A DNA stretch of 64,000 nucleotides. Source: an uncultured Thermodesulfobacteriota bacterium. GTDB lineage: Bacteria > Desulfobacterota > DSWW01. The translations under genes were made by a program, and so were the position numbers. Of this stretch, positions 4,433 through 58,932 are shown piece by piece (position 1 is the first letter of the stretch; each line of letters opens with the position of its first letter). Location of the stretch: NCBI GenBank assembly GCA_964479535.1, contig CAYZMM010000003.1, positions 193,467 through 257,466 on the forward strand, given 5' to 3'. The notes beneath the pieces were generated by a model. The model made no database searches. It saw only the letters and a list, made by a program, of their open reading frames with translations, and was not told where the DNA came from.

Positions 4433-4834
4433 CTTCTCACTCCTTTCCCGCCGTCTCGGACGCTGCCGCCCCTCGGCGTCATGGCAGTTTCGCTTCGAGT
4501 TCGATCTTCACGCCCGCCAGGGCCTTCGAAACCGGACAGGACTCCTTGGCGGTGCGAGCCTGTCATCATCAGCCATATGAGCAGCAATATGGATGCCAAG
4601 TGAGATGCGGCCTCTCACGGCCGTTTGAAGCACCGTCTTGCAGGGCCACCCTTCGGATCGGAAGGCCCCTATGCAAGGTTTGCACAGTTTGGTTCGCATC
4701 TGTGTGCGAATGGTGCACAACCTCCTCTGTGAAAAGCCGCCCGACTGCGGGTTCTCGATTCCTCCCGGGAGCCGTGAACCCGGCTCCGGGAATCTAACGT
4801 GAAAAGCACCATCAACCAGACAGGGGAGAATCTC

Positions 4835-42790: not shown

Positions 42791-43609
42791 ATGCGTTTCG
42801 TTGTTGTGCTGTTCCTGATGGTCGCATCCCTGCCCTTCGCGTACCTGCCCGCTTCCGCGGCGGAAGCATCCCCGCCCGACGTCATGACCATCGTACGCGA
42901 AATGGAGAAGGTCTTCGCCCCGGAGCGACCGACCGTGAGGAAGATCGAAATGGCCGTCAGCGGAGAAATCCGTCTGAACACGAGATGGGTGGCGAGGAAG
43001 GCCACCAAGATGTTTCCGAAGGGCATGCGAACGCTCCTGGTTCTCGTCGACCCGCGGGATGTTCGTGGGAACGCCCTGCTCGTCCAGGACAGGAAGGATC
43101 AGGAGGATGCTAGATGGGTCTACGTGCCCACTGTCCGCCGGGTACGGATGATTCTTCCCATCAACGCCTACGAGCCCTTCCTCGACTCGGACTTCACCTA
43201 CGCAGACCTGGGCTTTCTGGACGCTCCGGGCAGCTACAAGCTGCTCGGCGAGGAGGAGCGTGCGGGTGAGAAGGCCTACAAGGTCGACTTCACGCCCGAG
43301 GCCGACTGGTATTACTCCCACATCGTGACCTGGATCTCCAAGGAGAACCATCTTCCTCTGGAGCGGAACTACTTCGACGTCCCCAGGGAGCTGTGGAAGA
43401 AGGAGACCTTTGAGAAGGTGACGATCGTCAACGGGATCCCGACTCCCATGCGAATCCGCATGAAGGACATCCGGAACCTGACTGAGAGCGTGTTCGAAAT
43501 CATAGAGGTGCGTTACGACATCGGGGTTCCGGACGATCTTTTCGATCCCGCCGGTCTGTCCAAGGCCTCCGAATCCCCCTTCTGGGAAACGCTCGAAACG
43601 GCGGACTGA
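42791..43609 (+). CDS. LolA-like outer-membrane lipoprotein-sorting family protein (periplasmic, signal peptide)
   Basis: Signal peptide MRFVVVLFLMVASLPFAYLPASAAEA. ...LLVLVDPRDVRGNALLVQDR...WVYVP... typical of the family that accompanies RND/MMPL exporters. GAAGGAGGA RBS. Confidence 0.65.
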   Translation: MRFVVVLFLMVASLPFAYLPASAAEASPPDVMTIVREMEKVFAPERPTVRKIEMAVSGEIRLNTRWVARKATKMFPKGMRTLLVLVDPRDVRGNALLVQDRKDQEDARWVYVPTVRRVRMILPINAYEPFLDSDFTYADLGFLDAPGSYKLLGEEERAGEKAYKVDFTPEADWYYSHIVTWISKENHLPLERNYFDVPRELWKKETFEKVTIVNGIPTPMRIRMKDIRNLTESVFEIIEVRYDIGVPDDLFDPAGLSKASESPFWETLETAD

Positions 43610-45666: not shown

Positions 45667-47601
45667 ATGGCCAAGAACGTCGCCCAGAAGCTGATCGAGA
45701 CACACCTCGCCTCGGGCAGGATGGTGCCGGGAGAGGAGCTCGGCCTTCGAATCGATCAGACCCTGACCCAGGATGCAACGGGAACCATGGTCATGCTCGA
45801 ATTCGAGGCCATGGGCCTGCCCCGCGTGCGGACAGAGCTTTCCGCCCAGTATGTGGATCACAATCTCCTTCAGACCGATTTCAAGAACGCCGACGACCAT
45901 CTGTTCCTCTACAGCGCCTGCAGGAAGTTCGGGCTCTGGTACAGCCGGCCCGGCAACGGGGTCAGTCATCCCGTGCACATGGAACGATTCGGAATGCCCG
46001 GGAAGAGCCTTCTCGGTTCCGACAGCCACACGTGCGGCGCCGGAGCCCTGGGGATGCTCGCCGTCGGTGCGGGAGGCCTGGAAGTGGCCCTCGCCATGGC
46101 GGGGAAACCCTTCTACGTGCGGATGCCCCGCGTCTGGGGAGTGAAGCTGACCGGTTCTCTGCCCGACTGGGTGAGCGCAAAGGATGTCATCCTGGAGATG
46201 CTGCGTCGCCATGCTGTGGACGGAGGGGTAGGCAAGATCATCGAATACTACGGACCCGGGCTCGAGAGCCTCTCCACCATGGACCGGCACGTGATCGCAA
46301 ACATGGGGGCGGAGCTGGGTGCCACCACCACCGTCTTTCCGTCCGACGAGGCCGTGCGTCGCTTCATGAAAACCCAGGGACGGGAGAAGGACTGGGCGGA
46401 AATCCTTCCGGACCGGGGAGCCGGATACGATGAAGAGGACGAAATCAACCTCTCCGACCTGGAGCCCCTGATCGCCTGTCCCAGCAGCCCGGGCAACGTG
46501 GTCCCGGTGCGCGAGGTGGCCGGACGCGAGATCTATCAGGCCACGGTCGGCTCTTCGGCAAACCCGGGGCTTCGCGACTTCGCCGCCGCCGCCCTGATCG
46601 TGGACGGCAAACAGGTGCACCCTCGGGTGTCCTTTGACATCAATCCCACGTCGCGGCAGATCCTGGAAAACCTGGTGTCCATGGGACACCTGGCGAAGCT
46701 CATCCGCGCCGGCGCCCGCGTCCACCAGCCCGGGTGCAACGGCTGCATCGGCATGGGACAGGCCCCCGCGACCGGGAAGATCAGCCTCCGGACGGTTCCC
46801 CGGAACTTCCCCGGCAGGTCGGGCACCAAGGAAGACCAGGTCTACCTCTGCAGCCCGGAAACCGCGGCCGCCTCCGCGCTCACCGGCGAGATCACCGACC
46901 CGAGATCCCTCGACGGCGCCTATCCGCGCTTCGAGGAGCCGGAGAAGATCGACATCAACACGACCATGCTCGTCCCCCCTCCGGAAGACGGCGCGTCGGT
47001 GGAACTGGAAAAGGGCCCCAACATCGAGGCGCTTCCCGCCTTCGATCCGCTTCCCGAAAACCTGGAAGGCCCGGTGCTGATCAAGGTGGGGGACGATATC
47101 TCGACCGATGAGATCATGCCTGCCGGTACGAGGGTCCTGCCCTTTCGGAGCAACATCCCGGCCATCAGCCGGTTCGTCTTCGAGCCGGTGGACTCTTCCT
47201 TCCACGATCGGGCCGTGGAACACGGGAAGAAGGTTTCCTTCGTGGTGGGAGGGGAGAATTACGGGCAGGGGTCCAGTCGCGAGCACGCGGCTCTGGCGCC
47301 CCGGTACCTGGGGGTGCGGGCCGTCATCGTGAAGGGCTTTGCACGCATTCACTTCCAGAATCTGGTGAATTTCGGGATCCTTCCCCTCCAGTTCGCCGAT
47401 CCGGGCGACTTCGACAAGGTGAGCCAGGGGGACGTTCTGGAACTCTCCGGTGTCCGAGACGCCCTGGGTCCGGACGAAACCCTGGAAATCATGAACAAGA
47501 CCCGAGGGGAGAGGTACACACTCAGGCACTCCATGGGACCCCGCCAGATCGAAATCGTCAGGAAGGGGAGCCTCGTCAACGTGGTGAGAGAGGAATCATG
47601 A
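45667..47601 (+). CDS. aconitase-family hydratase (fused large + swivel domains)
   Basis: Aconitase signature ...GSDSHTCGAGALG... and small-subunit/swivel region. GAGGAGGA RBS. Confidence 0.85.
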   Translation: MAKNVAQKLIETHLASGRMVPGEELGLRIDQTLTQDATGTMVMLEFEAMGLPRVRTELSAQYVDHNLLQTDFKNADDHLFLYSACRKFGLWYSRPGNGVSHPVHMERFGMPGKSLLGSDSHTCGAGALGMLAVGAGGLEVALAMAGKPFYVRMPRVWGVKLTGSLPDWVSAKDVILEMLRRHAVDGGVGKIIEYYGPGLESLSTMDRHVIANMGAELGATTTVFPSDEAVRRFMKTQGREKDWAEILPDRGAGYDEEDEINLSDLEPLIACPSSPGNVVPVREVAGREIYQATVGSSANPGLRDFAAAALIVDGKQVHPRVSFDINPTSRQILENLVSMGHLAKLIRAGARVHQPGCNGCIGMGQAPATGKISLRTVPRNFPGRSGTKEDQVYLCSPETAAASALTGEITDPRSLDGAYPRFEEPEKIDINTTMLVPPPEDGASVELEKGPNIEALPAFDPLPENLEGPVLIKVGDDISTDEIMPAGTRVLPFRSNIPAISRFVFEPVDSSFHDRAVEHGKKVSFVVGGENYGQGSSREHAALAPRYLGVRAVIVKGFARIHFQNLVNFGILPLQFADPGDFDKVSQGDVLELSGVRDALGPDETLEIMNKTRGERYTLRHSMGPRQIEIVRKGSLVNVVREES

Positions 47602-49985
47602 AGAGACCGAGGGCGCTACTCGCATCGTTTCTGGTCGTCCTGCTTGCATTTCTCTTCTTGAATGCTGCCGCCCGATCGGGTGTGCCCCGCCCGATCGTTC
47701 TGGCACAGTCCGCGGGCGCAGACGTCGCCCCCTCCCGCGAGGATCCGGGAGAGACCGGAGCGCCGGCGTCCGAGCTGGAAGGGATCATCCTTCTACTCGA
47801 GGACCCGGAGGCTGCCCGGGAGCTTGCGGAAAGCCTTCGCAGGCTGGCGGAAAAGCAGAAGGCGGAGCCGCAGAAAGGGAAGGCACCGCCGGAGCCGAAG
47901 GAGGAAGAGGAACCGGAAGAGGAGATCCCGGAATCCCTCGCCAAGATCCTCGACTCGTACAAGACTCATCAGGACGAAGCGCGCTCCGCCCTGACCCGGC
48001 TGGAGCAGGAGACACGGGGGCTCGCCACCCGGTACGGAAAAGTGAAGGCCTACCTCTCCCGGCAGGAGAACCGGCGAATCCTGGTCGCCTTTTCGCTTCA
48101 GTTCGCCGTCGCCCTTCTCGCCGGCCTCGGAGCGTGGCTGGGACTGCGAAAGCTGACCCAGCACTGGGGCCGGAGGCTCGTCCGTAAAGATCCCCGCGGC
48201 CCGGGCAGACGGCTCGGCCGGGCCCTGCTCACCGCCTCCTTCCGGCTCTACCCCTGGGCAGGCCTCTTCCTGTTCGTGCTCCTCTTCTTTCTCTTCTTTC
48301 CTCACCTGGAGGAGTTCCAAAGCTTCCTGCTCCAGTGCATCCTGGCCCTGGGTCTCTACGCCGCATCGAGGAGCCTCGTGGAGAGCCTGCTCTCCCCGGA
48401 AGACGCCGACTTCAGGATCCTTCCCGTCCGCGACGGGCCGGCGGGCTATGCGTATGTCTGGTCGCGCCGCGTCCTGCTCTTCACGCTATGGATGGCCCTG
48501 ATGATCATCCCGGGAAGGGTGTACGGGTTCACGGCGTGGACCGCTCTCTTCGACGCGGTCCTCAGGACCGGACTCGTCGTCATGCTCGCCGTCGTGATGG
48601 CGCAGCAAAGGGATGTGATCCAGCGCAGAATCGGTCTCCATGTCCGAGAGGAGGATTCGCTCTGGAAAGCGCGCTCGAAGAGGATCGTGGGGTACGTACT
48701 GGGCAAGTTCTTCATCCTTGCCGTGGTCTACATGGGCCTTGTCGTCACCCTCTCCCTCCTCGGGTTTCGGGACGCCTACGACTACATGATCCGCGCCACC
48801 GGAAGGACCCTTCTGATCATTCTGGTCGCGACCGGCCTCGGCCTCCTCTGGAGACTTCTCTTCAGGAAGCTCTTCGATGTGAGCCGGAGCCTTCGGGAGA
48901 AGTACCCGGATCTCGAGACGCAGGTGAACCGGTACGTGAATCTGCTCGAGAACGGCGGCAATCTCCTCATCCTCCTCTTGGCAATCCTAAGCGCGCTGGA
49001 GGCGTGGGGGCTCAAGGTCTACGGGTTTCTGAGCTCCAACAGCACGATGGTCAAGGCCCTCGTTCAGATTCCCCTCGTGATCGCGGGCGCGGTCCTGTTC
49101 ATTCAGATCGGGCGGCTCCTGATCACAGGTTTGGAGAAGGAAGTGGCCCTTCGCATGCTGGCGGCCCGTACGACATCGCCCGGCGAGGCGGAGAAGCGCG
49201 TCGGCACCCTCGGCCGGATCTGCAGGAGTGCTCTCTACTTGCTGACCATCACCGTCGCCGGCATGATGGTTCTCGCAAGGATCGGCCTGGACATCAAGCC
49301 CCTGCTGGCGGGCGCCGGGGTCATCGGTCTGGCGGTGGGCTTCGGTGCCCAGAACCTCGTCAAGGACGTGATCAGCGGGCTTTTCTTCATCATCGAAAAT
49401 CGCATCCGCGTAGGGGATGTCGCGATCCTGAACGGCACGGGCGGTCTCGTGGAGCAGGTGAATCTGCGCACCACGGTCCTCCGGTCACTGGACGGAACGA
49501 TCCACGTGTTTCCCAACGGTTCGATCAGCTCCCTTTCGAACATGACCCACGAGTTCTCCTACTATCTGTTCAACGTGGGCGTGGCCTACAAGGAGGATAC
49601 GGACCGGGTGGCGGCCGTACTCAGGGAGATTGGGGACGAGATGCTCGCGGATGAAGCCTACAAGGAATTCATTCTCGAGCCCTTGGAGATCCTCGGGGTG
49701 GACCAGTTCGCCGACTCGGCGGTCATCATCAAGGCCCGGATCAAGACGGTGCCCATCAAACAGTGGCTGGTGGGCCGCGAGATGAACCGGAGGATCAAGA
49801 AACGCTTCGACGAGGAAGGGATCGAGATCCCCTTCCCTCACCGGACCTTCTACTTCGGGGAGGCGAGCAAATCCATCGCCCTCGCTCTCGAGGGGCAGAA
49901 GGAGGACCGGCAGGCACTCAGGGAACTCTTGCGGGAGCTTCTCGAAGAGGAAGAGACGAAGAGGAGCGGACCCGATGCGGACTAA
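47598..49985 (+). CDS. mechanosensitive channel, MscS/MscK family with large N-terminal periplasmic domain
   Basis: Signal peptide, ~11 TM helices, conserved MscS pore/beta domain (...GVIGLAVGFGAQNLVKDVISGLFFIIE...RVGD...G.VE...LRTTVLR..DG...VPN). ATGA overlap with aconitase. Confidence 0.85.
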   Translation: MKRPRALLASFLVVLLAFLFLNAAARSGVPRPIVLAQSAGADVAPSREDPGETGAPASELEGIILLLEDPEAARELAESLRRLAEKQKAEPQKGKAPPEPKEEEEPEEEIPESLAKILDSYKTHQDEARSALTRLEQETRGLATRYGKVKAYLSRQENRRILVAFSLQFAVALLAGLGAWLGLRKLTQHWGRRLVRKDPRGPGRRLGRALLTASFRLYPWAGLFLFVLLFFLFFPHLEEFQSFLLQCILALGLYAASRSLVESLLSPEDADFRILPVRDGPAGYAYVWSRRVLLFTLWMALMIIPGRVYGFTAWTALFDAVLRTGLVVMLAVVMAQQRDVIQRRIGLHVREEDSLWKARSKRIVGYVLGKFFILAVVYMGLVVTLSLLGFRDAYDYMIRATGRTLLIILVATGLGLLWRLLFRKLFDVSRSLREKYPDLETQVNRYVNLLENGGNLLILLLAILSALEAWGLKVYGFLSSNSTMVKALVQIPLVIAGAVLFIQIGRLLITGLEKEVALRMLAARTTSPGEAEKRVGTLGRICRSALYLLTITVAGMMVLARIGLDIKPLLAGAGVIGLAVGFGAQNLVKDVISGLFFIIENRIRVGDVAILNGTGGLVEQVNLRTTVLRSLDGTIHVFPNGSISSLSNMTHEFSYYLFNVGVAYKEDTDRVAAVLREIGDEMLADEAYKEFILEPLEILGVDQFADSAVIIKARIKTVPIKQWLVGREMNRRIKKRFDEEGIEIPFPHRTFYFGEASKSIALALEGQKEDRQALRELLRELLEEEETKRSGPDAD

Positions 49986-50575
49986 TGATTCAGGTGCTCC
50001 AGCCTCAGCTTTCCCCGGAGCATCCGGTTGGCCCGGTATTGCCGGGACTTCACCGAGGCAATCGTCACACCTGTCCGACGGCTGGTTTCTTTGAGTGTGA
50101 GACCGTCTCTGCGGCGAAGCAACAGCACCTCTCTGTACGCTTCCGGCAAATCCTCCATCGCCTCGGAAACGGAATGCAGCAATTCTTTCTCGTAGACAGA
50201 TGCAAACCCGTCCGTCCCCTCGTAAGGGTACCACGGAAAAGAATCGAATGTCTCCTCGAAAGGCTCGTTCTCCACGAAGGTGAGTCTATCCCGCTTCTTT
50301 CGACGTTCGCACATGAGGTATGCGTTGGTGGCGATCCGGTACAGCCAGGTCGACAGGGAGGATCGGCCCTCGAAACGGTGGATCTTGCGGTAGAGGGTGA
50401 TCATCACCTGCTGCACGATATCCTCCACGTCCTCGTCGTTTCGACACAGACGCCTGACTCGCCGGGTGACCTCCGGCCTGTGTTTCCTGATGAGGGAATC
50501 AAAGGCCCGGGCCTCACCTTCCTTTGCGCGTTCGATGAGAATAGATTCCGATTGGCTGTGCCTCGTTCCGATCAT
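49982..50575 (-). CDS. ECF-subfamily RNA polymerase sigma factor
   Basis: Region 2 (...QVMITLYRKIHRFEGRSSLSTWLYRIATNAY...) and region 4 (...LTLKETSRRTGVTIASVKSRQYRA). ATG 50575. Confidence 0.8.
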   Translation of the reverse strand: MIGTRHSQSESILIERAKEGEARAFDSLIRKHRPEVTRRVRRLCRNDEDVEDIVQQVMITLYRKIHRFEGRSSLSTWLYRIATNAYLMCERRKKRDRLTFVENEPFEETFDSFPWYPYEGTDGFASVYEKELLHSVSEAMEDLPEAYREVLLLRRRDGLTLKETSRRTGVTIASVKSRQYRANRMLRGKLRLEHLNH

Positions 50576-50682
50576 TCCGGTACACCCCTCTCTTCCGATC
50601 CGTAGACGAACTGATATTCGCCCTCCTCGACGAATACGTCCAGGCACCTGTGCACTTCCTGTCCGCACCCGTCCGGTTTCAT
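50572..50682 (-). CDS. small ORF (36 aa) translationally coupled to the ECF sigma gene, possible truncated anti-sigma-like peptide
   Basis: AAGGAG RBS. MKPDGCGQEVHRCLDVFVEEGEYQFVYGSEERGVPE. Its TGA overlaps the sigma ATG. Confidence 0.3.
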   Translation of the reverse strand: MKPDGCGQEVHRCLDVFVEEGEYQFVYGSEERGVPE

Positions 50683-50701
50683 ACGCTCCTTTCCCTTCCT
50701 T

Positions 50702-51295
50702 TCAGGTGTGTTCATCCTCGGACGGCCCCTTGCTGGGGGTACGCTCGAGAATCCTCACGGTGCTTGCCTGGGGCCCCTCCTCGCCCATGATCTCGGAGAA
50801 AGCTACACCGGCCCCCGCCTCCAGCTCGTCGAAGTCGTGATGCAGCACGCTGTTCCGGTGGAAATAGACCTGCCGCCCGTCGACCGTTCTGAGGAAGCCG
50901 CAGTCCTTTTCAGGCAAGAGCCGTTCGATGACTGCAGCGGTCTGCTGTTCCTCGTGGGCCTTCACGTCTCCCCGCTGCTTTTCCGTAATGCCCTGCAACT
51001 GGCGCTGCATCGCCCGAAAGGCCTGTCGAACCACGGAGGCCAGTTCCTCGTGCATCCCCCCTTCACCCGCCTCTCTCTTGGCCACGAGATCGTGTCCCGG
51101 AGGGACCCGCACGTTGACCCGCACGCGATAAGGGCTGCCCGTCCGCTGGTGCTTCTGAGGCCGCTCGATGCTCACCCGGCAGCTGACCATATGCGAGCAG
51201 ATCCTTTGCAGCTTCTCGGATTCCTTCCGGACCAGCGACTCCAAATCCTCCGTCTTTGCCACGTTCGAGCAACTCAACTCCAACGGTACGCGCAT
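50702..51295 (-). CDS. ribosome hibernation/sigma-54 modulation protein (HPF/YfiA N-domain) fused to a C-terminal cold-shock-like domain
   Basis: N-domain ...VPLELSCSNVAKTEDLESLVRKESEKL..RVNVRV.. matches HPF. C-terminal KDCGFLRTVDGRQVYFHRNSVL..FDELEAGAGVAFSEIMGEEGPQASTVRIL aligns with the CspA fold (KGFGFI/VFVHFSAI/GPAAGNV). GGGAGGAG RBS. Confidence 0.65.
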   Translation of the reverse strand: MRVPLELSCSNVAKTEDLESLVRKESEKLQRICSHMVSCRVSIERPQKHQRTGSPYRVRVNVRVPPGHDLVAKREAGEGGMHEELASVVRQAFRAMQRQLQGITEKQRGDVKAHEEQQTAAVIERLLPEKDCGFLRTVDGRQVYFHRNSVLHHDFDELEAGAGVAFSEIMGEEGPQASTVRILERTPSKGPSEDEHT

Positions 51296-51358
51296 TCTCG
51301 GTCTCCTCCCGTCTTTCCGGCATCCTTCCCCGACGTTCACACGCCGCTCTTCCCCGCC

Positions 51359-51793
51359 TCACCCCGCTGCGTCCTTCACGTCGAGCACCTTGACATCGAA
51401 ATGAAGGGTCTCGCCGGCCAGGGGGTGGTTCAGATCCAGCACGACGGTGTCGTCCTTCAGCTCTGCAACGCGTGCGACGAAGACCCCACCCTGCTCGTCC
51501 TGGCCCTCGAGCTGCGCATCCACCCGGCGCGACTCTTTCGGAACGACGCTCTTGTTCACTTCCTGAAAGGCCTCTTCGGACCGCTCGCCGAAGCCTTCCT
51601 CCGGCTCGACGACGAAGGACTTGTCTTCCCCGGCGTTCATCCCCTCCAGTTCACGTTCCACCCCGGGGACAATCTGCAGGGTGCCCTGCACATAGGTGTA
51701 CGGCTCCTTGCCGACATTGCTGGACACCTCGGTGCCGTCGTCGAGTCGGAGCCGGTACTCGATGGAGACCTGCTTGCCCTTTTCGATCATCAT
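51359..51793 (-). CDS. FKBP-type peptidyl-prolyl cis-trans isomerase (SlyD-like)
   Basis: FKBP core with inserted flap domain. Confidence 0.85.
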   Translation of the reverse strand: MMIEKGKQVSIEYRLRLDDGTEVSSNVGKEPYTYVQGTLQIVPGVERELEGMNAGEDKSFVVEPEEGFGERSEEAFQEVNKSVVPKESRRVDAQLEGQDEQGGVFVARVAELKDDTVVLDLNHPLAGETLHFDVKVLDVKDAAG

Positions 51794-52332
51794 AATTCCT
51801 CCCCTTTCCTACACTTGAGCTATTGCTGTTTGAAGGAACAGCCTCCTTTCCAGGGGCAGCAAGAGATGTGCCAGGTCCTCCGCAGCGGGCCTCTCAGAGG
51901 GTCGGCCACGCCTGGGGGGCAGGGAATCGGATCAGGCGGAGACGCAGAGCGAGGGGTTCTGTACCGCATATGCACACACACCACACCCCCACACGCTTTC
52001 TGTACCTTATGAACACACCCCTCCCCCAGGGTTTGAGAAAGGGCAGCCCTCGATTCAAAGACCCGCATGTTCGCAGGCATTTCGGCCGGGCATCCTCCTG
52101 GTTGATCTTCACAGATACGTGCTTCGAAGGGGCTTTCTTGTTCTTGGGTACGGTGATCTAAGGCGGATACAGGATACTCCTCGTCAAAGAGCCGCCCTGA
52201 GAGGGCGACGGGCTCAGAACCGTGTCGGACCGATCTTCGGACCGATCTTGGGTTGTATCGTACGGGATGCACACTGTCCTCCTTTCAGCCCGTTTCGTGC
52301 TGTCGAGAAATCTTCCGTCCTGCGCTCGCTTC

Positions 52333-54128: not shown

Positions 54129-55610
54129 TCACGTACGGGTCTCCTCGCTGCCGTCGTACCTGTAGACGACCTCTTCGCCCTTCACGACGGAAGCAAGGTG
54201 GACCGGGCGACCCCACAGATAGAAGATCGCTTCCATCGTCTTGCGGCGATACTCATCGTCCAGTTCGATCCCTTCATAGGCGTGCTTCAGATACAGCTCC
54301 CGCCTCCCCTTGTAATCCCCGTCCTCTACCCGTACCACGGGGATTCCGAAGTTGCTCAGATACGCCACGAGCATGTTCTTCACCGCCCTCCAGTCACGGT
54401 CCTGCACCGCGTACTGGATCTCGCCGTTCAGGTTCCGTCCCTGATAGAGGTAGAGCTCGAGACGCTCCACGAGTTCTCTGGTGAGGAAGGCCTCGACGAA
54501 GAAGCGATCCGTGTACCCCTGTCTGACTTCGAGCATCTTCGCTCTTCCCTGCCCCAGTTCCAGGTCCCACTTCTCTCGCTCGCGAGGGTCCTCACACTCC
54601 TCCCATTCCCGACCGAACCGTCCCTTGTTCCATCGTTCCTCGATATCCTCGAAGATCTTCAAACCCACGAGATACGGATTGATCGTGCGGGGGTTGGGTG
54701 CGAGGACCTGTGCGTTGCAGTAGTTGTACGCCCCGTGCTCTTCGCTGCTGAGGTGCCCTTCCTCGAAGAGGCGGTCCATGATTCGCATGTGCCAGTAGGC
54801 CGCCCACCCCTCGTTCATGATCTTCGTACGTCTCTGGGGAAGAAAGCAGAGCGATTGCTCCCGGAGGACCGACAGGACGTCCGTCTCCCATTCCTCCAGC
54901 GGCTTCGGAGAGTGGCTGAGGATGTACAGGAGCAGGTCCCGTTCCGGCCTCTCCGGCCTCCTACGGACCGGAGAACCCTGTTCCGGTCCCTTCGACTCCT
55001 CCGGCGGCTCCTTTCTCGGCAGGAGCTCGGAATAGGGGGGTCCTTTCGGCGGTTCCTCCTGACGATTCGCCTCCCGCCGACCTTTCCGCTTCTCGAAGAT
55101 CTCGCTCGTCAGGCCCTCCGGATCCACATTCAACTCGATGCTGAGTCCCGCATCGATCAAACGCTCCACCCGCTCCGTACCCTCCTCTTTCTCGTACGCC
55201 TGAAACCGCAGCGCGCTGGACGCGGCCGAAGGAAGCATGTCACGCCGCGTGGCCTTGAAGTGGAAATTGTTCTTCATGAAATCGTTGTGGCCGTAGACGT
55301 GTGCCATGACCATGACCTGTACGGGCAGGGAGTTCGTGTTCATCAGATAGGCGCGGCTCGGGTCGGAGTTCAGAACCACCTCATACGGGATGCCCAGTCC
55401 ATGTTCGTACCGGGTCCTCGCCTCTTCGTAATCCCGGCCGAAGGACCAGTGAGAGAAGTTGACCGGGAAGCGGTAGGCCATGATCTCGAGCATCTTCTGG
55501 GCCGGCACGACGTCGAATTCCTGCTCGAAGAAATCGAGGCCGAATTCCCGTGCAAGTCCCTGGATCTTTTCGTCGAACCAGGCCAGACGGTCCAGGGTGG
55601 CATTCAACAT
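54129..55610 (-). CDS. spoVR: SpoVR/YcgB-family protein
   Basis: 493 aa; SpoVR family by sequence and by conserved operon position after prkA and yeaH. Confidence 0.85.
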   Translation of the reverse strand: MLNATLDRLAWFDEKIQGLAREFGLDFFEQEFDVVPAQKMLEIMAYRFPVNFSHWSFGRDYEEARTRYEHGLGIPYEVVLNSDPSRAYLMNTNSLPVQVMVMAHVYGHNDFMKNNFHFKATRRDMLPSAASSALRFQAYEKEEGTERVERLIDAGLSIELNVDPEGLTSEIFEKRKGRREANRQEEPPKGPPYSELLPRKEPPEESKGPEQGSPVRRRPERPERDLLLYILSHSPKPLEEWETDVLSVLREQSLCFLPQRRTKIMNEGWAAYWHMRIMDRLFEEGHLSSEEHGAYNYCNAQVLAPNPRTINPYLVGLKIFEDIEERWNKGRFGREWEECEDPREREKWDLELGQGRAKMLEVRQGYTDRFFVEAFLTRELVERLELYLYQGRNLNGEIQYAVQDRDWRAVKNMLVAYLSNFGIPVVRVEDGDYKGRRELYLKHAYEGIELDDEYRRKTMEAIFYLWGRPVHLASVVKGEEVVYRYDGSEETRT

Positions 55611-55628
55611 GGGGGCTCCCTCCCATCG

Positions 55629-56954
55629 TCAACGAAAGGTTCTGTCCTTCTTCAGGAACTCCCTCACCGCAGGGTAGACGTGCTCTTTCCTCTTCAGAAT
55701 CACTCCGGCAAACGGCAGCGACGGATCCTTGCTCGCCACCGAGAGGAAGCCGTCCTGGCTCACCGAGTCCCTCTTGAGCTGGAACTCCCCCACAAAGGTC
55801 GTCATCAGATTCGAGAGATCGTAGAGACCTGTCTGGATCTCTGCGTAGCCCATCATGTTCACGCCCAGTTCCATCAGCCTGCGCGCAGCCGCCACGGCCC
55901 GGTCCGGCTCGAAATCCTCGCCGTCCGAGAAATGGAATCCGTAGACGTTCCATTTCGAAGACGGGTATTCCGTCTGGACGAGGTAGCTGGCCATGTCATA
56001 GGCCGAGCGACAAAAGGTGCCCCCGCTCTCCCCTTTGTGAAAGAAGGTTTCCTCATCCACGAGCCGGGCTTCCGTGGTGTGCGCAATGAACCGGATCTCG
56101 ACCGTCCTGTAGATCTGGCGAAGGGACTCGACGAGCCAGAAGAAGAAAGACCGCGCCAGGTACTTCTTCGTAGTGCCCATGCTCCCGGACACATCCATCA
56201 TTGCAAGAACGGCTGCATGGGACTGCGTTTCCACGTCCTGTTCCGGAATTCTGTAGCGGAGGTCCTCGTCGAAGAGGTAGGTGACCGGACCTCTTCCCCT
56301 TTCTTCCTCAATCGTGTCGCCATCGACACGCACGAGCATCCGCTTGGCCCCAAGCAGGTCGCCCTTCGCTTCGGAGAGCGCCTTTCGGCACTCCTCCTCA
56401 GAGGCCCCGGTCTCGCGCATCAACTCCGCCACGAAACTCGCCTCCCGCTTGATCGCCTCTTTCACCGTTCGCTTCTTGTCGAGATGGGCGGCCAGTCCCT
56501 TCTTCTCGATATCTTCGAACTTCCATCCACGGGGAACGATGGTTTCCGCCTGCTTCTTCTCTTTCAGGTTGGGCAACCCGAGGTCCTCGAGCATCATCTC
56601 GATCAGTTCGTCGATGTCGACCTCCGTCTCCAGGTAGTCGAAGCCCGGCTGGTCTCCCGCCTTTCCGGGAGACTGCCCAGGTGCGGGCTGCCGTCCGACC
56701 ACATCGCCCTTCTCTCCCGCGCCCTGCCCGATCCCCTTGCCTCCCTCACTCTCGCGCCGGAAGATGAACCGGTAGCTCTTCAAGCCCCGTATCGGAACCT
56801 TCACGATCTGCCCCTTCCGGCGGGTGATGATCGACGTGTCGCCGATGATCTCCGCGATGTTGCTGCGGATCGCCTCTTTCTTCTTTTCCCTGTGGCGTGC
56901 GGCATCCGCAAGGCCCCGCTTGGAAAGTCCCCAGTCCAGCTTCTTGACGGCCAT
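55629..56954 (-). CDS. YeaH/YhbH (DUF444) vWA-domain protein
   Basis: DUF444 with C-terminal vWA-like region. 13-nt gap after prkA. Confidence 0.85.
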   Translation of the reverse strand: MAVKKLDWGLSKRGLADAARHREKKKEAIRSNIAEIIGDTSIITRRKGQIVKVPIRGLKSYRFIFRRESEGGKGIGQGAGEKGDVVGRQPAPGQSPGKAGDQPGFDYLETEVDIDELIEMMLEDLGLPNLKEKKQAETIVPRGWKFEDIEKKGLAAHLDKKRTVKEAIKREASFVAELMRETGASEEECRKALSEAKGDLLGAKRMLVRVDGDTIEEERGRGPVTYLFDEDLRYRIPEQDVETQSHAAVLAMMDVSGSMGTTKKYLARSFFFWLVESLRQIYRTVEIRFIAHTTEARLVDEETFFHKGESGGTFCRSAYDMASYLVQTEYPSSKWNVYGFHFSDGEDFEPDRAVAAARRLMELGVNMMGYAEIQTGLYDLSNLMTTFVGEFQLKRDSVSQDGFLSVASKDPSLPFAGVILKRKEHVYPAVREFLKKDRTFR

Positions 56955-56967
56955 CCTTCGGATCCTC

Positions 56968-58932
56968 TCATTCGCCCCTGCGGAGGATGTCCCCCACGTA
57001 CTGGAGCAGATTGTCCGCACACACCGGGCAGTAACCCTTCTGCTGCAGGGCCTCTGCGGCGTCCTGACGCCGCTTCACGGTCTTCGGGTCTTTCCGCGTC
57101 TTGTCCGAGATCGTAAGAGAGACGACGTTCTTCAGGTCGCCGATCAGCTTCCGTTCGATCGCCTCCTGGAGAGGCTGATAGGTGCTGAAATCGAAGTCCT
57201 TGCCCTGGTCGATTGCCACGCTCTTGAACACGAAGATCCCCTGACGGAATTCCCGCTTCGCGTTCTCCGAGATACCGATCATCTCCTCGATGCTTCGCAT
57301 CAGTCGCTCGTCCGGATCCTCTTCATCACCGGTCACCGGGTCCCGGATCTTGCTCTGGGTACAGTAGGCCGTTGCATTCTTCATGTAGTTGTCGAACAGG
57401 GCTTGCGCCTGGTCTTCGTAGGCAAACAGGAAGGCGCGGTTCACTTCCTTCTTCGCCACCTCCCTGTATTCGCTCAGCACGCTGTCCTTCTCGCCCACGA
57501 GAAGATTCAGGTACCTCGCCTTATCCTCTTCGGTGAAACCGATGTGGTGTTCGAAATTGGCGCGCAGGGCGCGTATGACGTCCAGGGGATTGATGCAGTT
57601 CGCCTGCTCTTTGGCCCCCATGGCCACGCTCAGGCCGTTCACCACGAACCGGGGGCTGATACCGGACATCCCCTCTCCCTTCCTCTTGCCTTCCAGGCGA
57701 AGCTGAATGAGATCCAGTTTCTCCTGATCCTTGTCCGTGATCGCGTCTCCGTTGTAGTACTTCATCTTCTTGACGAGGTTCGGGCAGAGGTCGCTCTCCG
57801 TCATGCGCGTCAGGACCGCGAACTGGGCCGCCGTCTTCAGGGCGTGGGGCGCCAGGTGCACTTCCTGAAAAGCGCTTCTGTCGATCATCTTCTGATAGAT
57901 CTTCTCCTCATCATCGATCCGGAGGTTGTACGGGACGTAGATGGGGTACATGCGGTCGTGAAGGGCCTCGTTTTCCTTGATCGCCTTGAACTTGTCGAAC
58001 TCCGTCTGGTTGGTGTGCGAAACGATGACCTCGTCCACGTAGATTTGCGGGAACCCGGGCGCCTTGAGCACCTGCTCCTGAGCGACCGTGATCAGGATGT
58101 AGTGGAACTTGATGTCACACTTCAGGATCTCGATGTACTCCATGAGCCCACGGTTGGCTATCTCGAGCTCCCCGTCCAGCTTGTAGGCCCTCGGGTCCGT
58201 CTCCCCGTACTGGGTGATCTTGGAAAGGTCCACACGCCCGATCAGCTCGGCAATGTCCTGGTTCTTCGGGTCCGAGGGCTGAAAGGTGCCGATCCCGCAG
58301 CGGGCCCGCTCGTCCAGCTGAATCTGTACCACGGGGAACTGCTCCCACAGGACGTTTCCCTCACCGTCGCGGAATTCGTCCTGTTCGAGCAGTTTGAAGC
58401 GGCACACGGGACAGAGGTCCCCTTCGATCTTCACGTCCAGGATCTCCTCCCATTTCGCCCTGTGGTCCCTCGGAATGAGATGCAGGGGCTCTTCGTGAAT
58501 GGGGCACCCCTTGATCGCGAAGATGGGCGTCGGATCCCTTTCCAGACCTCGACGAAGAAGTGCGGCAATGGTCGACTTGCCGCTCGAAACCGGCCCCACC
58601 AGGATCAGGATGCGCTTTCCCGTTTCGGCCCGCCTGGCGCCCGCCTTGAAGAACTTCATGATGTCATGGAGGGGCTCCTCCAGGCCGAAGATCTCCTCGT
58701 CGAAAAAAAGATACCGCACCATGTCCTCGTAATCCGGCAGAAGGAGATCCTCTCCCACGGACTCGGTTCCAGGCTCCATCACCATGTTGTAAAGCCTGCC
58801 GGGGGCCAGCTGTGCAATGGCAGGATCCTCTTTCACGCGCACCATGTACTCGAGGCAGGTCCCCTCCCAGAGGGCTACCGTTTCCTGTCTTCTCGACTCT
58901 TCTATGAGGTCCTTGAAGTCGCGGGTGGGCAT
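56968..58932 (-). CDS. prkA: PrkA/YeaG AAA+ serine protein kinase
   Basis: Walker A GPVSSGKST. PrkA N-terminal ...LWEGT..EYM..VKEDP.... Confidence 0.9.
   Translation of the reverse strand: MPTRDFKDLIEESRRQETVALWEGTCLEYMVRVKEDPAIAQLAPGRLYNMVMEPGTESVGEDLLLPDYEDMVRYLFFDEEIFGLEEPLHDIMKFFKAGARRAETGKRILILVGPVSSGKSTIAALLRRGLERDPTPIFAIKGCPIHEEPLHLIPRDHRAKWEEILDVKIEGDLCPVCRFKLLEQDEFRDGEGNVLWEQFPVVQIQLDERARCGIGTFQPSDPKNQDIAELIGRVDLSKITQYGETDPRAYKLDGELEIANRGLMEYIEILKCDIKFHYILITVAQEQVLKAPGFPQIYVDEVIVSHTNQTEFDKFKAIKENEALHDRMYPIYVPYNLRIDDEEKIYQKMIDRSAFQEVHLAPHALKTAAQFAVLTRMTESDLCPNLVKKMKYYNGDAITDKDQEKLDLIQLRLEGKRKGEGMSGISPRFVVNGLSVAMGAKEQANCINPLDVIRALRANFEHHIGFTEEDKARYLNLLVGEKDSVLSEYREVAKKEVNRAFLFAYEDQAQALFDNYMKNATAYCTQSKIRDPVTGDEEDPDERLMRSIEEMIGISENAKREFRQGIFVFKSVAIDQGKDFDFSTYQPLQEAIERKLIGDLKNVVSLTISDKTRKDPKTVKRRQDAAEALQQKGYCPVCADNLLQYVGDILRRGE

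Follow-up and report, generated by a model that had tools for sequence, protein, structure and literature searches.

In a 64-kb stretch of DNA from an uncultured Thermodesulfobacteriota bacterium (herein the window, whose numbering gives all positions) we find what is probably a lineage-specific stress operon, in which a sigma-54 promoter is followed by genes for a SlyD-like FKBP, a ribosome hibernation factor of the HPFcold class, a dead remnant of an AF1514-family gene and an extracytoplasmic function (ECF) sigma factor, all on the minus strand (Table 1). We assign this reading a probability of about 0.75. A sequence-only reading of the same DNA had reported this gene order, and its coordinates hold; it had also presented the fusion of an HPF domain with a cold-shock domain (CSD) as undescribed. 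The main outcome of our analysis is a correction of that view: the fusion, as HPFcold or the “HPF-Csp” chimera, is already published and abundant in databases, has a name, a solved structure and a mechanism, and is hence not to be flagged as new. What the locus appears to add is regulatory context. In one uncultured clade HPFcold seems to have been brought under a sigma-54 enhancer regulon together with starvation-type genes, and to be co-transcribed with a private ECF sigma factor; this offers a hypothesis, open to test, on when the cell deploys HPFcold, and the sigma factor is another candidate for purely transcriptional control.

HPFcold and its relatives

Stuart et al. (Nat Commun 2026; PMC13392368) described the Coxiella burnetii ribosome by cryo-EM and named CBU_0020, which combines PF02482 with PF00313, HPFcold. 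Its N-domain occupies the 30S tRNA cleft and blocks the decoding site (PMC13392368; PDB 9T0Z/9TZE), while its CSD lies in the mRNA exit channel, bound to the anti-Shine-Dalgarno 3′ end of the 16S rRNA (PMC13392368). The authors propose that HPFcold guards the rRNA of non-dimerised 70S ribosomes against RNases; they find the architecture in many phyla, with family conservation clustering where the protein touches the anti-Shine-Dalgarno tail (PMC13392368). Independently, Chan et al. (bioRxiv 10.1101/2025.11.04.686544; cited in PMC13392368) described chimeras in which HPF is joined to Csp, SigE or CBS domains and which are wrongly annotated as long HPF. The chimeras occur alongside canonical HPF, at loci that vary.

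Judging from its sequence, the 197-residue window protein is an orthodox ribosome hibernation factor of the HPFcold class. PF02482 (Ribosomal_S30AE) matches residues 7 through 107 (E = 2.6e-10; 41.3 bits against a cut-off of 23.7) and the CSD model PF00313 matches residues 122 through 181 (E = 1.2e-7; 31.9 bits, cut-off 27; 34.4 bits on the isolated C terminus). Ribosom_S30AE_C, the C-terminal domain of long HPF, gives no match at E ≤ 1 in either the whole protein or its C-terminal 82 residues, in agreement with the earlier assignment of the window protein's C-terminal domain to the cold-shock fold. Residues 1 through 185 align end to end with residues 6 through 183 of PDB chain 9t0z_9 (E = 3e-31), and a check of the structure records identifies 9T0Z/9TZE as C. 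burnetii HPFcold. With 26 homologues as input, AlphaFold2 gives a model with a mean predicted local distance difference test score (pLDDT) of 80, in which two domains are joined by a low-pLDDT linker at residues 111 through 116. The modeled N-domain matches RaiA/HPF folds with template modeling (TM) scores of 0.77 to 0.88 (best, RaiA 8rd8_D, 0.88), and the modeled CSD matches CspB/CspA folds with TM scores of 0.85 to 0.90. The CSD residues that are invariant across 26 diverse homologues include GF, YFH and QASTV, which fits the published conservation at the anti-Shine-Dalgarno contacts.

A search of HPF homologues for the same fusion finds it many times over: there are at least 1,132 database homologues, and both Pfam domains are present in nearly all of the best 120 of these 1,132. 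Among the GTDB species genomes scanned, at least 571 carry a relative, and some family copies are carried on megaplasmids. Database labels for the family are “HPF/RaiA family ribosome-associated protein” (NCBI) and “cold shock CspA family protein/RaiA” (JGI). An exact-protein look-up of the window HPFcold returned no recorded gene with an identical product.

The window protein and the Coxiella protein share the PF02482 and PF00313 domains, align over their full length (197 and 183 residues), keep the CSD motifs and are both without the long-HPF dimerisation domain. They differ in that identity is only ∼40% and the window protein has a 12-residue acidic tail. Coxiella is a gammaproteobacterial pathogen, whereas the window derives from an uncultured lineage of ∼60% GC in which HPFcold shares a putatively sigma-54-driven operon with the genes for FKBP and an ECF sigma factor, a context unmentioned in the two papers. 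The N-terminal S30AE domain is homologous to those of long HPF, short HPF and RaiA (YfiA), and its blockade of the decoding site is presumed to be the same. Long HPF has a PF16321 dimerisation domain, which the window protein is without; short HPF partners RMF and the C-terminal extension of RaiA enters the mRNA channel, whereas the window protein has a folded CSD instead.

Close-relative context was taken from loci whose HPFcold is 72 to 80% identical to the window protein, and a distant set of 80 GTDB loci (L001 through L080; HPFcold 41 to 63% identical) was searched by tblastn for the sigma gene, the small open reading frame (ORF) that precedes it, and FKBP, within 4 kb. A metagenome scan contributed only three further loci. 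No related sigma gene or small ORF was found in any of the 80 distant loci, and FKBP was found in two, not adjacent to HPFcold; the operon thus does not characterise the family as a whole. From these comparisons the linkage of HPFcold to the sigma gene is lineage-specific, belonging to a clade whose HPFcold proteins are at least 72% identical, and even there one close relative (contig P0007) has FKBP and HPFcold without a sigma gene. The claim that hibernation and RNA-chaperone functions are coupled to an ECF regulon thus describes a lineage-specific operon and not a property of the family.

Other neighbors recur in the distant set. The commonest across phyla is a 234-residue phosphoribosyltransferase (PRTase)-like protein directly upstream on the same strand (17 of 80 loci). 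A protein of ∼384 residues that is baeRF1/Balon-like, as judged from sequence alone, adjoins HPFcold in 6 of 80 loci and would fit the remark of Chan et al. on Balon adjacency (bioRxiv 10.1101/2025.11.04.686544); a conserved 76-residue ORF follows HPFcold in 10 of 80 loci, mostly cyanobacterial.

The sequence-only reading had viewed the protein as a hibernation factor and free RNA chaperone, with the CSD acting on mRNAs as CspA does and tied functionally to the ECF regulon. The window CSD does retain RNP-like GF and YFH motifs and a CspB/CspA-like fold, and HPFcold appears to be co-transcribed with the sigma gene. Against this role, the CSD of the solved homologue instead binds the 16S anti-Shine-Dalgarno tail, held by a short linker to a ribosome-bound N-domain; it is the residues touching that tail that the authors find conserved (PMC13392368), and the sigma linkage is missing from all 80 distant loci. 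We consider a free chaperone improbable and favor a CSD that acts on the ribosome.

Putative sigma-54 promoter and enhancer sites

Alignment of the regions upstream of FKBP located a candidate sigma-54 promoter ∼65 nt ahead of the FKBP ATG. Every close relative keeps it in register ahead of FKBP; in L082, L083 and L089, where FKBP is absent upstream of HPFcold, the promoter lies directly upstream of HPFcold itself. Transcription would start near 51847, giving a 5′ untranslated region of ∼54 nt. Tandem copies of a palindromic motif, TGTGC-N7-G(C/T)ACA, span 86 to 158 nt upstream of the promoter and are putative enhancers (upstream activating sequences, UAS) for a sigma-54 activator (bacterial enhancer-binding protein, bEBP). 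L081, L084 through L088 and L090/91 also have tandem copies at this position ahead of FKBP. A promoter scan of 49800 through 52400 found no sigma-70-type promoter. The conservation of promoter and enhancers is a previously unremarked regulatory context for HPFcold. Sigma-54 control as a general feature of HPFcold was also considered and rejected: a sigma-54-like site lies within 300 nt upstream in 4 of 79 distant HPFcold loci, so that the wiring is specific to the clade.

The operon promoter is one of a cluster of 14 sigma-54 promoter-like sites in the window, where 3.1 would be expected. Enhancer motifs accompany the sites at 4584 (−), 10858 (+), 21140 (−), 21312 (+), 28272 (−), 31031 (−), 31225 (+), 36784 (−), 37002 (+), 38913 (−), 39115 (+), 42727 (+) and 51859 (−), several of the promoter-like sites forming divergent pairs; the sole site without an enhancer motif within ∼200 nt is 18500 (+). 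Conversely, every enhancer-motif match lies 50 to 200 nt from a promoter-like site. The sequence TGTGY-N6-GGTACA occurs five times exactly (0.01 expected) and 12 times when one mismatch is allowed (0.57 expected). The spacing within tandem enhancer pairs is 41 nt in every case (the operon pair, 28359/28400 and 36861/36902).

The genes downstream of these promoters encode Usp, Slp, protein-L-isoaspartate methyltransferase (PCMT), a rubrerythrin-like protein and a LigA-like ligase, and further a NarG-like molybdenum oxidoreductase, an isochorismatase with an aldo-keto reductase, and a LolA-like protein followed by a sigma-70-family gene. Usp, Slp, PCMT and the others behind motif-flanked promoters, together with a PrkA-YeaH-SpoVR operon just upstream of the HPFcold operon, give the cluster a starvation theme, and by its motifs and gene content it looks like a single-activator starvation island. 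The motifs are placed as described; from their placement we infer common regulation of the genes they flank.

The 42727 (+) promoter and its enhancer site precede the LolA-like gene, after which comes a 481-codon sigma-70-family gene whose product has region 1.2. By position, its product would apparently add another sigma factor to this sigma-54 regulon.

The AF1514/DUF5619 remnant and the ECF sigma factor

Between HPFcold and the sigma gene, the sequence-only reading had described a 36-codon micro-ORF that follows HPFcold after a 19-nt gap, has a strong ribosome-binding site and overlaps the sigma ATG with its stop. We confirm these features, with AAGGAG-N5-ATG at the start and a TGA that overlaps the sigma ATG as ATGA, and extend the frame, which opens 11 codons earlier at ATG 50715 to give 47 codons and a 14-nt overlap with the 3′ end of HPFcold. 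This ATG matches the start of an intact gene in relatives, and the same 14-nt overlap is found in L082 and L090. In close relatives the order is FKBP, HPFcold, a PF18505 gene of 104 to 123 codons (DUF5619/AF1514 family, PDB 3C0F), the ECF sigma gene and a convergent aconitase-MscS unit. The DUF5619 gene between HPFcold and sigma is intact in L081 (5653 through 5967), L082/83 (L082, 5581 through 5901), L089, L090 through L092 (L090, 3581 through 3922), the P0005 contig and L098 (about 30 through 375); L097 retains its 3′ part at a contig end.

On this comparative evidence the micro-ORF is an in-frame deletion remnant of the syntenic AF1514/DUF5619 gene. The N-terminal 37 residues of the remnant are 43% identical to residues 1 through 37 of the L082 protein (E = 6e-5), and its tail, GEYQFVY, equals the C-terminal motif of the L090 protein at 7/7 positions. 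DNA alignment to L090 and L081 requires a single gap of ∼201 nt (67 codons), with the domain core gone: the L090 protein runs from RSVDVYVDD through about 62 residues to GEYQFVYRVEGDSNR and the stop, whereas the window remnant passes directly from HRCLDVFVEE to GEYQFVYGSEERGVPE and the stop. The remnant thus shares with the family its N- and C-terminal flanks, start-codon position and synteny, and is missing ∼60 core residues. PF18505 finds no match in the 47-residue ORF (E = 1.6e-26 and 1e-30 for the L081 and L082 genes), which marks it as a remnant and not a family member.

The same gene has decayed elsewhere in the clade. L084/85/87/88 carry an independent, larger in-frame deletion, in which MRTTD is joined to QFVYRVEDESDRT and the stop, and in L093/94 the gene is wholly lost with no ORF remaining; counting the window, AF1514/DUF5619 has been lost independently at least three times. 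The family has a conserved ECCG motif, and a literature search on DUF5619/AF1514 returned nothing relevant.

Might the micro-ORF nevertheless have evolved anew, out of the AF1514 remnant, to encode a true small regulator, such as a minimal anti-sigma factor or a leader peptide that tunes translation of sigma? The strong AAGGAG-N5 site at the internal ATG is lacking in homologues and unique to the window lineage, the ATGA overlap with sigma is real, and the reading frame has been kept in two independent deletions. Yet two in-frame events are expected by chance at ∼1/9, the DUF5619 core including the ECCG motif is lost, and the micro-ORF has no family match. Nor does it pass the conservation check that the sequence-only reading had itself proposed: none of the 80 distant loci has it, close relatives do not have the same ORF, and L093/94 keep sigma with nothing at its position. 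AF1514-family genes lie in unrelated contexts elsewhere. We regard a functional small protein as unlikely and retain the deletion remnant, whose 36-codon start signals may postdate the deletion and may help ribosomes load onto the sigma start. Comparative genomics here clearly shows a micro-ORF behind a good ribosome-binding site to be gene debris.

The sigma factor downstream has regions 2 and 4 only (Sigma70_r2, E = 2e-18; Sigma70_r4_2, E = 1.9e-12) and scores 97.2 bits with TIGR02937 (cut-off 42.9). Among the matches listed, all family-specific NCBIfam models fall under their cut-offs, the best being PRK11922 (125 versus 204 bits). Orthologues are 62 to 68% identical and form about a dozen clusters (64 to 68% identity), and the next-best matches are at most 39% identical. 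These orthologues are limited to the clade, and all those inspected lie downstream of HPFcold, with or without AF1514.

In L097/98 an extra sigma-54-like promoter (TGGTATccagaTTGC) and a TTGTGCACAACGTGCACAA palindrome lie directly upstream of sigma. There the AF1514-sigma spacer has grown to ∼295 nt (L097, about 240 through 420; L098, about 430 through 610) and holds a perfect 39-nt inverted repeat containing TTGTGCACAACGTGCACAA.

An adjacent cognate anti-sigma gene is typical for ECF sigma factors, though not universal. No anti-sigma-like gene was found in or beside the operon, including any zf-HC2 or RskA-type ORF; the sigma gene is flanked by the convergent mscS and the AF1514 remnant, and the earlier remark that no canonical anti-sigma gene follows it is confirmed. 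AF1514 was tried as a dedicated anti-sigma factor and rejected on its repeated loss here and its neighborhoods elsewhere, where its genes stand beside desulfoferrodoxin or alone and so do not behave as dedicated sigma partners.

A related proposal makes HPFcold or AF1514 the missing negative regulator and the operon a sigma/anti-sigma-like module. The adjacency of HPFcold and sigma is strict in the clade, the sigma factor has no outside relatives above 39% identity, and the SigE-HPF fusions (bioRxiv 10.1101/2025.11.04.686544) offer a hint of the Rosetta-stone type. However, sigma was kept through all three AF1514 losses, AF1514 is found without sigma genes elsewhere, HPFcold is overwhelmingly without an adjacent sigma gene, and the P0007 contig pairs FKBP with HPFcold and no sigma; such a module is very unlikely indeed. 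We are also highly doubtful of a recurrent functional coupling between HPF-type hibernation factors and ECF sigma factors, co-transcribed here and fused as “SigE-HPF” elsewhere (bioRxiv 10.1101/2025.11.04.686544). Were it true, a sigma-54-triggered dormancy module would shut ribosomes down while handing transcription to a dedicated ECF sigma factor, and direct HPF-sigma contact might even replace the anti-sigma factor.

The arrangement suggests, by analogy with HrpL, a sigma factor that is controlled transcriptionally and without an anti-sigma factor. HrpL of Pseudomonas syringae (ECF32) is made from a sigma-54 promoter via HrpR/HrpS and has no anti-sigma factor. Transcription of hrpL, an ECF sigma gene, is by sigma-54 (PMC5263251). 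The regulatory logic is alike in the window, where the ECF sigma gene lies downstream of a putative sigma-54 promoter with enhancer sites and has no cognate anti-sigma gene. Between the sequences themselves only general ECF similarity is established. In further contrast to HrpL, there are no type III secretion genes among the neighboring genes examined, and the window sigma gene is the last of a multi-gene stress operon.

For the stress operon as a whole we propose that a starvation or stationary-phase signal would bring a bEBP to the two tandem TGTGC-N7-G(C/T)ACA sites, from which sigma-54 transcription of FKBP, HPFcold, the remnant and sigma would follow. The HPFcold N-domain would then occupy the 30S decoding and tRNA sites while its CSD, in the mRNA exit channel, would wrap the anti-Shine-Dalgarno 3′ end of the 16S rRNA; ribosomes would be parked as protected 70S monomers, the protein being without the long-HPF dimerisation domain. 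The remnant, if translated, would be at most a spacer whose translation delivers ribosomes to the start codon of sigma. Because the ECF sigma factor would appear only once the starvation/stationary-phase regulon has fired, it would need no anti-sigma factor, as for the sigma-54-dependent hrpL.

Several points weigh against this account. The promoter and enhancer calls are purely motif-based, and the window contains neither a bEBP gene (searched through GAFTGA, ESELFG and Walker motifs) nor rpoN. An anti-sigma factor may be encoded elsewhere in the genome. Ribosome binding by the window protein is extrapolated from ∼40% identity to one solved homologue. As to the micro-ORF, alignment to L082 permits a contiguous ELDFVEA/EYQFVYG pairing, that is, a 3′-truncated fragment, and given its lineage-specific AAGGAG the 36-residue peptide may be newly functional. 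The internal deletion is favored because of the 7/7 match at the C terminus and the unambiguous L084 case.

Gene layout and neighboring genes

Table 1. Features of the HPFcold operon and of neighboring genes, in window coordinates
Feature	Position	Strand	Basis
Distal enhancer (UAS) site TGTGTTCATAAGGTACA, putative bEBP binding site	52001..52017	−	Motif match, conservation
Proximal enhancer (UAS) site TGTGCATATGCGGTACA, putative	51960..51976	−	41 nt from distal site, 86 nt upstream of promoter
Sigma-54 (−24/−12) promoter TGGCACatctcTTGC, candidate	51859..51873	−	Exact TGGCAC-N5-TTGC consensus match
SlyD/SlpA-type FKBP peptidyl-prolyl isomerase-chaperone, 144 aa	51359..51793	−	PF00254, E = 2.4e-15
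HPF-CSD (HPFcold) gene, 197 aa	50702..51295	−	PF02482 and PF00313
HPFcold N-terminal HPF/RaiA (S30AE) domain, residues 1–115	50951..51295	−	PF02482, fold match, 9T0Z chain 9 alignment
HPFcold C-terminal CSD (residues 118–185), disordered acidic tail and stop codon	50702..50944	−	PF00313, fold match
AF1514/DUF5619 in-frame deletion remnant, 47 codons	50572..50715	−	Comparison with relatives
36-aa ORF of the sequence-only reading, inside remnant	50572..50682	−	Same reading frame
ECF-type sigma factor, 197 aa	49982..50575	−	Sigma70_r2, Sigma70_r4_2, TIGR02937
MscS-family mechanosensitive channel, 795 aa; operon boundary marker	47598..49985	+	Pfam MS_channel domains
LolA-like gene	42791..43609	+	
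Sigma-70-family gene, 481 aa	43797..45242	+	
PrkA-YeaH(DUF444)-SpoVR/YcgB starvation-kinase operon	54129..58932	−	

FKBP precedes HPFcold in most clade members. Residues 1 through 143 of the window FKBP align with the NCBIfam SlyD and FkpB models, with scores under their cut-offs. Longer versions of two operon genes, starting at GTG 51340 for HPFcold and at GTG 50668 for sigma, were ruled out by the N termini of homologues.

The sigma gene is convergent with mscS, as had been reported, and the two overlap by 4 nt (49982 through 49985). It is their stop codons that overlap, and there is no terminator-like hairpin between them, so the convergent transcripts must overlap; the scan of 49800 through 52400 likewise found no minus-strand terminator. 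Rfam gave nothing credible in 49000 through 53000, and across the full window no family reached its gathering score. Synteny of the aconitase-MscS unit extends to L081, L084, L090 and L097. On the other side of the operon, an aldehyde dehydrogenase gene separates it from the PrkA-YeaH-SpoVR trio, which likewise flanks the operon in L081.

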